Below are positions 47,275 through 48,847 of a DNA stretch of 64,000 nt, in pieces (position 1 is the stretch's first letter; the number at the start of each line of letters is the position of its first letter). Origin of the DNA: an uncultured Trueperaceae bacterium (lineage in GTDB: Bacteria > Deinococcota > Deinococci > Deinococcales > Trueperaceae); assembly GCA_963727505.1 (NCBI GenBank), contig CAVSGP010000002.1:32001-96000 (forward strand), written 5' to 3'. The notes below the pieces were generated by a model. The model was not told the origin of the DNA. It saw only the letters and a list, made by a program, of their open reading frames with translations, and did not search any database. The position numbers and the translations under genes were made by a program.

Positions 47275-47473
47275 GCTCTACCAACTCCTACGTCCGACCC
47301 CAGCCGACCCGGGATCGATCACGTACCCGAGCCGACTGGGGCCTAAACGGTGGTTCCACCACTTCATAGTAATCCCGGCGCGTCGTCGCGCCCGCCAGCG
47401 TAGCTTCACGTGGACACAGCCTCTACCTCATCGCGGTTGGGAGGTCGTACGCTCGCCTCCACGAGCACGATAG

Positions 47474-47495
47474 CGCCCACCCCGAGGGGTGGGCG
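47474..47495. terminator. GC hairpin downstream of recA
   Basis: CGCCCACCC-CGAG-GGGTGGGCG; no clear U tract. Confidence 0.45.
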
Positions 47496-47566
47496 TGGGA
47501 CATCTGTCACGTTGGGACACGAGCCCCTGGCAGGGGGCGCGGAGGGCGAGGCCGAGGTTCGGGCGC

Positions 47567-48658
47567 TCAGGCCTCCAGCGCGGCGTCCTTGGCCGGATCG
47601 TCGGAGCCACCGTCATCGGTGCCGAGCTCCTCGACATCGTAGGCGGCGCTGCGATGCACCTGCTTGCCGAGCTGCAGCTCGCTCATGACGCGTTCTCGGA
47701 TGGCTTGCAAGACGTCCGGGTTCTGGCTCAGGAACTCCACCGTCTTCTCCTTACCCTGCCCCAACCGCGTCTCCCCGAACGAGTACCACGACCCCGACTT
47801 CTGCACCACCTCCACATCACTCGCCACATTCACCAGATCCCCCACCGCATCGATCCCCCGACCGAACATGATCTCCACCTCCGCCTCCCGGAACGGCGGC
47901 GCCACCTTGTTCTTCGTCACCTTCACCCGCACGCGGTTCCCCACCTTCTCCGCGCCCACCTTCACATCCCCCTTACGCCGCACCTCCATACGCACACTCG
48001 AATAGAACTTCAACGCCCGCCCCCCCGGCGTCACCTCCGGATTGCCGTACAACACCCCGATCTTCTCCCGCACCTGATTGATGAAGATCGCCGTCGCCTT
48101 ACTCTTCGACAACACCGCCGTCAACTTCCGCAACGCCTGCGACATCAACCGCGCCTGCAACCCCACATGCGCGTCCCCCATCTCCCCCTCCAACTCGGCG
48201 CGCGGCGTCAACGCCGCCACACTATCGATCACCACCACATCCACCGCGCCCGAACGCACCAACAACTCCGTGATCTCCAGCGCCTGCTCCCCCGAATCCG
48301 GCTGACTCACCAACAACTGCTCGATATCCACCCCCAACGCCCGCGCATACGACGGATCCAACGCATGCTCCGCATCCACGAACGCCGCCACACCCCCCAC
48401 CGCCTGCGCCTGCGCCACCACATGCAACGCCAACGTCGTCTTCCCCCCCGCCTCCGGACCATAGATCTCCACCACCCGACCCCGAGGCACACCCCCCACC
48501 CCCAACGCCACATCCACCGACAACGACCCCGTCGAAATCACACCCGCCGCCAACGACCGCACCTGCTCCTCACCCAACCGCATCACCGCGCCCTTCCCAA
48601 ACTGGCGCTCGATGGTGCTCAGGGCGAGGTTGAGAGCCTTCTCCCGTTCCTTGTCCAT
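47567..48658 (-). CDS. recA: Recombinase A
   Basis: [48 protein letters not shown]. Confidence 0.98.
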
Positions 48659-48847
48659 GGTGTTGCTCCCTCCGTGCCTGGGGCCCGTGGGCGCAACGTA
48701 CACGCCCGTCTTCGGAATACCTTAAATACTAAGGGGCCGGAGGGGTCGTTGGCAAGGGGCGGGCACCGAGAACTCCTCGGCACCCGCCCCGTTCCTGCGG
48801 CCGGACCCGCCCTGCGGCGGGAGCAGCGCGCGACGCTAGCGCCGGCG

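Follow-up and report, generated by a model that had tools for sequence, protein, structure and literature searches.

Duplicated regions with strong strand skew were described in 2021 under the name 'genetic repeat of intense nucleotide skew' (GRINS), being defined as duplicated regions of >500 bp with >80% identity and mean absolute GC and TA skews >0.15, and their mechanism was stated to be unknown (PMC8256042). They were reported across phyla, including in genes of replication, recombination and repair, were associated with gene conversion, and shift the encoded amino acids towards Gly and Val at the expense of Pro, Thr, His and Gln (PMC8256042). Another related system is that of the duplicated tuf genes, which undergo concerted evolution in six phyla, including Deinococcus-Thermus and Actinobacteria (PMC6053082), and of which those of Salmonella have shown that the type of mismatch decides what is converted (PMC5485169). 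Neither a strand skew nor a codon dialect is described in the accessible parts of these two tuf papers; in those of the concerted-evolution survey, recA occurs 0 times and is not among the 19 bacterial genes (PMC6053082). Two recA genes in one genome, with a presumed division of labour, are known from Myxococcus xanthus (PMC7029660). The mismatch endonuclease NucS (EndoMS) cleaves G/T, G/G and T/T mispairs and spares C/A (PMC6159521), and in vivo such mispairs are removed from the incoming strand in patches of ~6 nt, whilst A-C, C-C, A-A and T-C are left (PMC11551744).

The locus described here lies in a 64,000-nucleotide stretch of DNA from an uncultured Trueperaceae bacterium (the window; its genome is designated G000), in which a recA gene, copy A, is flanked by genes for a 2-oxoacid:ferredoxin oxidoreductase and pyruvate dehydrogenase E1 (Table 1). 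A GGAGGG motif is situated 8 nt upstream of the ATG, and the open frame reaches back to a GTG at 48703. An earlier inspection of the letters alone (the sequence-only reading) had taken the encoded protein to be intact, and full-length matches to the Pfam profiles PF00154 (447.4 bits) and RecA_C PF21096 (74.2 bits) agree with this.

Table 1. Features of recA copy A, in window coordinates
Feature	Position	Strand	Basis and remarks
recA copy A CDS	47567..48658	-	363 aa, ATG at 48658; ORF list, sequence, Pfam
Conversion tract, 943 bp, codons 16-329	47671..48613	-	blastn of both loci, genome self-blastn, branch points in independent runs
G/T-ending dialect (GRINS-type skew), codons 19-308	47735..48604	-	Change-point fit, codon table
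Tract 3' end, normal codons, codons 309-329	47671..47734	-	Identity outlasts dialect here by 21 codons
N-terminal 15 codons, copy-specific, normal codons	48614..48658	-	Comparison of copies, codon table
Acidic C-terminal tail, copy-specific, normal codons	47567..47670	-	ORF list, comparison of copies, codon table

The same reading had reported that the core of recA is written in a G/T-ending codon dialect, and this was borne out by the third positions of its 289 codons (window 48600-47735), which comprise A0, C27, G223 and T39. The minus strand reads exactly as had been quoted, both for a 21-codon stretch with a single C-ending codon (1/21) and for the first codons in the normal dialect, whilst a recount of plus-strand 48481-48540 returned the same 32 C, 17 A, 8 G and 3 T. 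The dialect had been placed at 47735..48600, within a few bases of the boundaries given by a two-change-point fit (Table 1), and the normal codon usage noted for the termini and flanking genes was likewise recovered, with third positions of C9 G8 in the first 19 codons of copy A and C29 G18 in the last 56, and with 50-55% C and 36-44% G in four neighbouring genes. The fraction of third positions occupied by G or T is 0.91 inside the dialect vs 0.50 outside it (copy A). The coding strand of the core is enriched in the keto bases G+T and the template strand in the amino bases A+C, most strongly at third positions (262/289 G+T vs 193/289 at first and 149/289 at second positions).

GC skew of the plus strand in 200-nt windows ranges from -0.43 to -0.58 over 47700-48599 and stays within +/-0.2 in the flanks. 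The genome-wide standard deviation is 0.084 (65,142 windows of 300 nt), and only five merged tracts in the genome peak above |0.45|, namely both recA copies, both tuf copies and one SQD1-like gene. A repeat-protein gene elsewhere in G000 (C9:11316-12707) displays a mild skew of opposite sign, an observation that counts against the reading favoured below.

A second recA, near-identical over this interval and with distinct termini, had been predicted, and is present on contig C9 beside a cinA-like gene (copy B; G000:C9:351390-352388(-); PF00154 448.9 bits and PF21096 74.0 bits, full-length Pfam matches). The stretch shared by both copies measures 943 bp at 100% identity, with 0 mismatches and 0 gaps (blastn; C2:79671-80613 vs C9:351401-352343), whilst their N- and C-termini are unrelated and the C-terminal tail of copy B is different and shorter. 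Across codons 20-308, identity between copies is 100.0% within each of the five two-copy genomes examined vs 69-96% between genomes, hence the recA copies evolve in concert: recurrent gene conversion keeps the cores identical whilst the termini remain copy-specific. Matches in genus g1 include two (G003:C8 and G004:C19) that extend through the specific C-terminal tail of copy A (query 1-357 and 1-363) and another (G003:C3) that matches copy A only at query 2-333, as copy B does; the duplication predates the species compared in this genus, the loci being orthologous. Four further genomes, of which two are single-contig, have the same architecture. Between genera, DNA identity of the tract falls to 84% with the dialect still retained, indicating that the dialect is inherited and maintained.

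An assembly chimera, which had been raised as an alternative, was refuted by independent data. In two runs of a second study, contigs continue across 47671 without a single difference, and loose contig ends, seen at 47671 in 2 runs and at 48613 in 4, encode the flanks of copy B; both junction types are therefore present in independent metagenome contigs, with branch points at exactly 47671 and 48613. Summed contig depth, which does not equate to copy number, was 2-3 times higher inside the tract in runs X1 and X2. The edges of the dialect follow those of the identity tract: its onset lies 2-13 codons past the onset of identity and its end at codon 308 in all four of the genomes compared (4/4), and identity continues for 17-28 codons beyond the 3' end of the dialect in G003, G019 and G020. 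Given these edges, and the normal codons of the recA termini and of fusA and rpsJ (see below), the skew is tied to the tract rather than to the gene or the transcript.

Homogenisation by gene conversion, which the sequence-only reading had proposed as the explanation of the dialect, is thus supported as a process in 5/5 genomes, but leaves the dialect itself unexplained. Conversion alone does not produce it, since genome G012 carries two recA copies that are 100% identical over 972 bp and written in normal codons (third positions C132 G134). The dialect is also not a general property of repeats in the assembly, as a 711-bp Crp-like pair (99.86% identity) and a 554-bp pair (95.7%) are in normal codons. 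Further 'repeats' of 4.8 kb and 1.27 kb, each situated where contigs end, probably represent overlaps in the assembly.

When skews were measured in 150-nt windows with a step of 30, mean |GC skew| and |TA skew| were 0.49 and 0.18 for the recA tract, and 0.51 and 0.23 for tuf. Among 656 background segments of 943 nt, |GC skew| had a median of 0.080 and a maximum of 0.342; the TA skew of the recA tract is barely above the 0.15 threshold and inside the background range. With a length of 943 bp, 100% identity and both mean skews >0.15, the converted recA core is by definition a GRINS. It shares with those described the G+T vs C+A axis, correlated GC and TA skews (r = 0.30 in recA and 0.57-0.62 in tuf), a maximum at third positions and, in EF-Tu, the shift towards Gly/Val and away from Pro/Thr/His/Gln (PMC8256042). 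Unlike the original GRINS, which were found in polyketide synthase modules and transposases and flip sign abruptly, the present elements involve core housekeeping genes, each in two dispersed copies, and their skew keeps a single sign over the whole tract, is conserved between genera and is offset differently from the identity tract at the 5' and 3' sides (PMC8256042). Nowhere does the main text of that paper contain the terms recA, elongation factor, Deinococcus, mismatch or NucS (PMC8256042). The likeness to tufA/tufB lies in dispersed paralogues that are near-identical over the coding region with unrelated flanks, and in conversion that passes a mismatch repair filter dependent on the type of mispair (PMC5485169, PMC6053082), whereas the recA tract is internal to the gene, so that two RecA proteins keep different termini. 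The two recA genes of M. xanthus are, in contrast, described as having diverged in function, and the abstract mentions no converted core or codon skew (PMC7029660).

Both tuf copies of G000 carry the same G/T dialect and form the second such element in this genome. Their sequences contain one and two frameshifts respectively, which indicates that repeats are poorly polished in the assembly. Genes co-transcribed with tuf are normal, with G/T third-position fractions of 0.48 in fusA (700 codons) and 0.42 in rpsJ. The C-ending codons abandoned in the dialect are those used in tuf of relatives, with third-position C of 72% in genus g18. The dialect was also found elsewhere in the clade and in further phyla, a scan with a 13-codon motif having retrieved at least 119 stretches; this motif selects for the dialect and hence establishes presence in other phyla, not frequency. 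EF-Tu of the extreme genomes contains 52-58 Val (vs 40-49), 110-116 residues of the set GVWCF (vs 94-101) and 82-96 of the set PTHQNK (vs 100-110), with rho = 0.77 (n = 35) without phylogenetic correction. Such a shift in amino acid composition points to a pressure-like force.

Duplication matters for the skew. Single-copy recA is normal in the NucS-only genomes G023 and G024, and seven two-copy genomes of an actinobacterial order score 0.68-0.84, compared with 0.43-0.48 in four single-hit genomes, in which T/(T+C), taken at two-fold sites, is 0-0.02. Counting against a duplication-based reading are G225 (0.96) and G228 (0.84), each with one tuf match on a contig that continues through the gene, and G123, a single-contig genome with one tuf and a score of 0.72. 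In many of the relatives, recA or tuf sits where a contig ends or is missing.

The mismatch repair genes of G000 were examined by profile searches of the genome, which is 97.4% complete. An intact NucS is encoded at G000:C6 with both domains in one ORF (NucS_N 65 bits, NucS_C 85 bits), whilst MutS1 was not found (best MutS match 117 bits against a cut-off of 641.7, covering positions 525-806 only) and MutL had no match. Possession of NucS without detectable MutS1/MutL resembles the situation in Actinobacteria, and the mismatch discrimination of NucS shares the keto/amino axis of the skew, although the enzyme has been described as a corrector of replication errors (PMC6159521, PMC11551744); the role in conversion considered below is our own suggestion. 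Its specificity was established in C. glutamicum and M. smegmatis and is carried over to the NucS of this organism by analogy. The literature search returned no paper connecting NucS with GRINS.

Extreme skew was found mostly in genomes with NucS and without MutS/MutL. A tuf G/T fraction of at least 0.95 occurs in 11 of 77 order-level genomes, all of which (11/11) are NucS-only; none of the 19 MutL-only genomes of family f1 exceeds 0.65, and three genomes with neither system score 0.26-0.27. Among 31 published genomes of a second phylum, the top two (0.96 and 0.92) are NucS-only. The NucS-only extremes combine G/(G+C), scored at four-fold sites, of 0.95-0.99 with T/(T+C) of 0.75-0.97, and GC-rich MutL+ intermediates have G/(G+C) of 0.85-0.95 and T/(T+C) of 0.32-0.57. 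MutS ignores C.C mispairs (the 'C.C blind spot'), a property applied post hoc to these data. The dialects of NucS and MutS genomes do not separate cleanly in kind and differ only in degree, as T/(T+C) is up to 0.78 in the MutL+ genomes L149 and L200.

Nor is the NucS-only genotype required for the skew, or enough to produce it. NucS-only genomes include G042, G014 and G011, which reach 0.64-0.68, and the two-copy genomes of the actinobacterial order (5/5 of those tested), which reach only 0.68-0.84, whilst MutL+ genomes without a NucS match attain 0.90 (L149, two copies 16 kb apart), 0.87 (L171) and 0.86. Two identical copies occur without skew in many MutL+ genomes, namely in family f2 (0.28-0.50) and in G012 (0.43). 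Few independent lineages underlie the association, since 13 of the 16 NucS-only f1 genomes fall in one clade of an EF-Tu tree (support 88, not starred). This tree is weakly supported, with 13 of its 74 branches starred, and may be biased by composition; it was used solely to gauge the fewness of contrasts.

The best reading of these observations, and one that we consider narrowly probable, is that gene conversion is biased with a strand polarity and that repair selective for the type of mismatch acts as its filter, with the skew arising as a by-product of conversion rather than through codon optimisation. Heteroduplex between copies would form with one polarity favoured, most of the donor information entering on the template-sense strand; we infer this polarity solely from the asymmetry of the tract ends, and conversion would probably start from the 3' end of the tract. 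NucS, the only mismatch repair system found, would correct G.T, G.G and T.T, whilst A.C, C.C and A.A would escape. If correction proceeds in the presumed direction, an incoming template-sense G or T would be erased and an incoming A or C kept. Many such rounds would leave the template strand with A+C and the coding strand with G+T, overriding codon preference and even shifting amino acids.

Replication-linked polarity was rejected as a source of the skew, since the recA copies are oppositely oriented in G000 (judged by contig skew) and G020 (by dnaA position) and such a bias would drive co-directional and head-on copies apart; both tuf copies are co-directional with replication. Transcription-associated mutagenesis alone was rejected on the normal codons of fusA and rpsJ. 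A wider form of strand-specific mutagenesis, in which the coding strand is single-stranded in recombination intermediates or R-loops and undergoes C to U (T) and A to hypoxanthine (G) changes with no repair bias, is unlikely, even though the keto/amino axis on which the skew lies is the classical signature of deamination, the CTG-to-TTG, GAC-to-GAT and CAC-to-CAT changes are all transitions, and the 35 runs of three or more G per kb of coding strand, vs 1.1 on the template strand, would favour R-loops. Deamination yields transitions only, yet C at four-fold sites has been replaced mainly by G (in the extreme f1 genomes these sites have G/(G+C) of 0.95-0.99 with A+T of just 13-37%), and in MutL+ lineages G-for-C exceeds T-for-C, the opposite of what deamination predicts. 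It also fails to account for fusA and rpsJ, co-transcribed yet unaffected, and for G012 and family f2, which convert without skew. Deamination of the lagging strand was mentioned by the GRINS authors, who also offered the hypothesis of a polymerase with keto/enol or amino/imino tautomer bias (PMC8256042). Skewed errors written by such a polymerase during conversion would arise in converted DNA only and affect every codon position, but this origin seems slightly less likely still, as it explains neither why lineages with equally identical copies range from no skew to extreme skew nor why the extremes are concentrated in NucS-only genomes, and it needs a fixed strand polarity, as the conversion-and-repair reading does.

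Selection on the nucleic acid, favouring a C-poor, G/U-rich mRNA or a G-poor template in recA and tuf, is given an equally low likelihood. Such a composition might weaken mRNA folding, evade Rho, a factor loading onto C-rich RNA, or an RNase dependent on C, or stimulate, through a G-rich non-template strand, the recombination by which the copies stay alike; both genes matter under stress, and the tract mRNA is predicted to be less stable (-25 to -45 vs -41 to -62 kcal/mol per 120 nt in the flanks). The sequence-only reading had put forward selection for a G-poor template or a special mRNA structure; a G-poor template or weakly folded mRNA is a real physical consequence, but leaves unexplained why the dialect stops with the conversion tract. 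Its boundary tracks the identity tract and not the transcript or CDS, with exemption of the first 15-19 codons of recA, those most relevant to translation initiation, and of the last 55, and the dialect drops the C-ending codons of the relatives' tuf and alters the amino acids of EF-Tu. Other highly expressed genes were not outliers in the genome-wide skew scan, no canonical G-quadruplex motif ((G3+N1-7)x4) occurs in recA or tuf, and the single-copy recA orthologues of G023 and G024 lack the dialect. Finally, it is scarcely credible that the tract is an assembly chimera or collapsed repeat, or that the recA core was imported recently from a donor of different codon usage, the frameshifts in the tuf copies notwithstanding, because the tract occurs in independent runs of two studies with its 3' junction crossed without differences, is found with the same architecture in other genomes, and keeps its dialect across genera; we know of no donor genome with such overall codon usage.

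Few marker genes are as conserved or as widely used as recA and tuf. With ~90-99% of silent sites rewritten and EF-Tu composition shifted, phylogenies, codon-usage statistics and dN/dS tests are distorted, and the duplicated cores break short-read assemblies. The clade offers a natural comparison for the mechanism of GRINS, having recA and tuf duplicated or single, and sister lineages with NucS or MutS/MutL. It is possible, if on balance doubtful, that GRINS in general are the footprint of strand-asymmetric biased gene conversion in which, wherever paralogues exchange strands with one polarity favoured, blind spots of repair decide the surviving bases. Were this so, one strand of the repeats would be driven to near-pure G+T in NucS-only genomes, the effect in MutS/MutL genomes would be milder, chiefly G for C, and genomes with neither system would show none, whilst sign flips within GRINS would mark recombination start sites. 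The mechanism missing since 2021 would thereby be supplied, as a new kind of biased gene conversion whose axis is keto/amino instead of GC/AT. For the organism itself, the tract is a way of keeping two RecA isoforms with different regulatory termini and one shared catalytic core.

The third positions of the 289 codons flagged in the recA gene of the window (copy A) comprised 0 A, 27 C, 223 G and 39 T, such that codons ended almost exclusively in G or T, a pattern referred to here as the dialect. The first 19 and last 56 codons displayed normal codon use, and four same-strand neighbouring genes had 50-55% C and 36-44% G at third positions, as the sequence-only reading had described. The codons quoted in that reading matched the minus strand exactly, its count of 32 C, 17 A, 8 G and 3 T for 48481-48540 was reproduced from the sequence, and the RecA protein was, as claimed, intact by full-length profile matches. 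Plus-strand GC skew ranged from -0.43 to -0.58 over window 47700-48599 and was approximately zero outside. In a scan of the whole assembly of this genome, G000 (3.26 Mb, 15 contigs, 70% G+C), the standard deviation of skew was 0.084 (65,142 windows of 300 nt) and peaks above |0.45| were found in five tracts only, bearing out the claim that the skew is anomalous relative to the rest of the genome. Runs of three or more G occurred at 35 per kb on the coding strand of the recA tract vs 1.1 on the template strand; no canonical G-quadruplex motif was found in the tract, and its predicted mRNA folding was weaker than that of the flanks. Directly upstream of copy A in this G+C-rich genome lies an A+T-rich island (ttagtatttaaggtattccgaagac), which may be a promoter or operator.

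Features of the window and of the remainder of genome G000 (C3, C5, C9 and C10 are its contigs)
Feature	Location	Strand	Remarks
recA copy A CDS	window 47567-48658	-	full-length RecA: PF00154 447 bits, RecA_C 74 bits
Tract identical in copies A and B	window 47671-48613		codons 16-329; 943 bp, 100% identity
A+T-rich island	window 48700-48750
recA copy B	C9:351390-352388		adjoins a cinA-like gene; whole-genome search
tuf, first copy	C9:397945-399162		outside window; frame lost near 'EVEIVG'
tuf, second copy	C9:647858-649076		outside window; frame lost near 'EVEIVG'
SQD1-like epimerase gene	C9:387101-388400	-	C-rich third positions
Lipoprotein-like repeat-protein gene	C9:11316-12707	-	internal tandem repeats
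Crp/Fnr-like regulator pair	C5:221088-221798 and C9:357711-358421		711 bp; normal codons

The second recA that had been predicted, with an identical core and distinct termini, was found on contig C9 (copy B). Copies A and B were unrelated on both sides of the identical tract, including the N-terminal 15 codons and the acidic C-terminal tails. Comparison with recA contigs from four public metagenome runs of two studies ruled out an assembly artefact, including the chimera that had been raised as an alternative. Junction-crossing contigs from independent runs (X3 record 17 and X5 record 23) spanned 47300-48253 with 0 differences, whilst all four runs had a loose end at 48613, and runs X1 and X2 had another at 47671, with continuations that translated to the copy B flanks (KKALDTAISQ and RGGRAPGVGT). 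The pieces that bridge the 5' junction overlapped the tract by 30 letters, one below the matching criterion. Approximately 5 kb from copy B is one member of a Crp/Fnr-like gene pair (99.86% identity) that appears to have duplicated recently and shows no skew.

Both tuf (EF-Tu) genes of G000 were also among the extreme-skew tracts; the copies were 99.7% identical over 1,219 bp, and third positions in the intact N-terminal part comprised 0 A, 3 C, 167 G and 88 T. One frameshift in the first copy and two in the second are most likely unpolished indels in repeats of the assembly, because a cell cannot have both EF-Tu genes broken. Transcription level or operon membership might be invoked for the tuf dialect, but these were ruled out since fusA, directly upstream, and rpsJ, downstream, were ordinary, with G/T fractions at third positions of 0.48 (over 700 codons) and 0.42, respectively. 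The opposite extreme was seen in an SQD1-like epimerase gene (C 315, A 46, G 50 and T 5 of 416 third positions), for which no second copy was found in G000. Elsewhere in this genome, contigs C3 and C10 align collinearly over approximately 44 kb of C3, with 85-94% identity; they may represent a pair of related replicons or prophages, or else strain variation within a single bin.

The recA tract, with tuf, belongs to a published class without an explained mechanism, the 'genetic repeat of intense nucleotide skew' (GRINS), defined in the available text of the describing paper as duplicated sequence of >500 bp with >80% identity and mean |GC| and |TA| skews >0.15 (PMC8256042). The recA tract (943 bp, 100%) had mean |GC| and |TA| skews of 0.49 and 0.18, and both tuf genes 0.51 and 0.23. 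According to the same text, the two skews are correlated and strongest at third positions, Gly, Val, Cys and Trp are enriched and Pro, Thr, His and Gln depleted (PMC8256042). The same amino acid shift was evident in EF-Tu, where extreme-dialect genomes differed from MutL-only relatives in Val (52-58 vs 40-49), in G/V/W/C/F totals (110-116 vs 94-101) and in P/T/H/Q/N/K totals (82-96 vs 100-110); composition correlated with dialect across 35 genomes of family f1 (rho = 0.77, uncorrected for phylogeny). The internal repeats of the lipoprotein-like repeat-protein gene are ~135 bp long and 88-93% identical. Its skew is formally above the GRINS thresholds, although mild and of opposite sign (coding strand C 314 of 464; plus-strand GC ~+0.2, TA ~+0.26), in agreement with the two signs reported (PMC8256042). 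The GRINS authors, who regarded the mechanism as unknown, suggested tautomer-driven polymerase errors, and the available main text contains no occurrence of recA, elongation factor, mismatch or NucS (PMC8256042). No link between GRINS and NucS or mismatch repair was found in the literature searched, which lay mostly outside subscription journals.

Among 41 related genomes, 36 had a recA match and five (G000, G003, G012, G019 and G020) had two full-length copies, sharing 943-991 bp at 99.0-100% identity. Codons 20-308 were 100.0% identical within every two-copy genome vs 69-96% between genomes, supporting the proposed gene conversion. The recA loci of genus g1 are orthologous between species, as the specific tail of copy A was matched in G003 and G004; together with the within-genome identity, this indicates an old duplication whose identity has been maintained. 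The recA of G003, G019 and G020 carried the dialect (C 33-56, G 221-242, T 50-73), and the single-copy genes of G023 and G024 had ordinary codons. The conversion model thus stood for the homogenised core but failed as the full cause of the dialect, since the copies of G012, identical over 972 bp, used ordinary codons (C 132, G 134); conversion by itself is insufficient.

The skew axis in recA and tuf opposes G+T to A+C. Pure deamination can only turn C into T, and G outweighs T at four-fold sites, which argues against it as the source. Change-point fits in four dialect genomes placed the start of the recA dialect 2-13 codons after the start of identity and its end at codon 308 in all four, with identity continuing for a further 17-28 codons. 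The tuf genes of G112 and G148 showed a 5' lag of 1-3 codons and a 3' lag of 6-21 codons. These unequal lags imply that the process is oriented with respect to the gene. Replication was ruled out as the source of this orientation: both tuf copies are co-directional with it, but the two recA copies are opposed, one co-directional and one head-on, in G000 (contig-scale skew) and in G020 (dnaA at 2.79 Mb).

A mismatch filter acting during conversion would offer a coherent and testable explanation, supported in part by the comparison of genomes but with clear exceptions. In the available texts, NucS/EndoMS cleaves G/T, G/G and T/T but not C/A (PMC6159521); in Mycobacterium smegmatis NucS strips such mispairs from the incoming strand in patches of ~6 nt, whilst A-C, C-C, A-A and T-C become permanent (PMC11551744); and in Salmonella tuf the conversion outcome is set by mismatch type, with MutS reducing conversion 200-1000-fold (PMC5485169). 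If the template-sense strand carried most of the donor information, filtering by NucS would let A and C persist there and remove G and T, yielding the observed dialect. Were the process to start near the 3' end, both strands would be copied there, so that no heteroduplex would form, which could account for the return to normal codons in the 3' portion of the tract.

G000 encodes an intact NucS with both domains, and neither MutS1 above the cut-off nor any MutL was found in it. In family f1, NucS was present in 38 of 61 genomes plus G000 and MutL in 23 of 61, the exceptions to complementarity being G176 (both) and G123 (neither); this near-perfect complementarity between NucS and MutS1/MutL means that a whole mismatch-repair system was exchanged within this one family, which lies outside the Actinobacteria. 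Neither system was found in genus g18 of family f3. The tuf gene was scored in 77 genomes of the order by G/T index (fraction of third positions G or T), which was 0.64-0.99 in 16 NucS-only f1 genomes (11 at ≥0.95), 0.36-0.65 in 19 MutL-only f1 genomes, 0.28-0.50 in family f2 (MutL+, with or without NucS), 0.26-0.27 in three genomes with neither system and 0.47-0.83 in family f4 (MutL only). The limits on this comparison are serious, in that 13 of the 16 f1 genomes with NucS only group together on the EF-Tu tree, in a clade with weak support, and hence represent few independent events.

With one genome per species, the EF-Tu P-loop motif was found in dialect codons in at least 119 stretches from many phyla; four genomes flagged as unpublished (G210, G221, G241 and G249) were left out of all claims. 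Among the matches listed, the highest whole-gene tuf indices outside Trueperaceae-like loci were those of two Nitriliruptoraceae (0.96, 0.92) and L149 (0.90), with Gemmatimonadota at 0.78-0.86, some Gammaproteobacteria up to 0.87, and Thermodesulfobacteriota, Aminicenantes and Thermomicrobium at 0.76-0.85. NucS was present in three of 31 published genomes tested (the two Nitriliruptoraceae and L187, index 0.84); MutL was present in 26 and not found in five. In the order around G225, NucS was found in 5/5 genomes tested and MutL in 0/5; seven genomes had two tuf copies (97.4-100% identity, index 0.68-0.84) whereas four small genomes had a single match inside a longer contig (0.43-0.48, T/(T+C) 0-0.02), so duplication matters. 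G225 and G228 carry the dialect with one tuf match in contigs running through the gene. A NucS-only genotype therefore goes with extreme dialect, yet is neither necessary nor sufficient.

The dialect also occurred in two flavours. NucS-only extremes approached saturation, with G/(G+C) of 0.95-0.99 at four-fold and T/(T+C) of 0.75-0.97 at two-fold sites, whilst GC-rich MutL+ intermediates had 0.85-0.95 and only 0.32-0.57, and unskewed GC-rich relatives had T/(T+C) of 0.01-0.09. MutS is not known to recognise the C.C mismatch, and the flavours fit recognition by MutS of G.T and A.C but not C.C, a rule applied after the data were seen and broken by the MutL+ genomes L149 and L200 (T/(T+C) 0.78), L202 (0.82) and L171 (0.91).

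Five relatives (G005, G013, G014, G017 and G022), three of them 94-97% complete, yielded no recA match at E ≤ 1e-30, and tuf was likewise missing from many relatives. Many fragmented relatives had a recA cut off where its contig ended, the behaviour expected of a collapsed repeat. Short-read bins probably lose recA and tuf where the duplicated cores are identical, and completeness estimates based on marker genes would then be affected.
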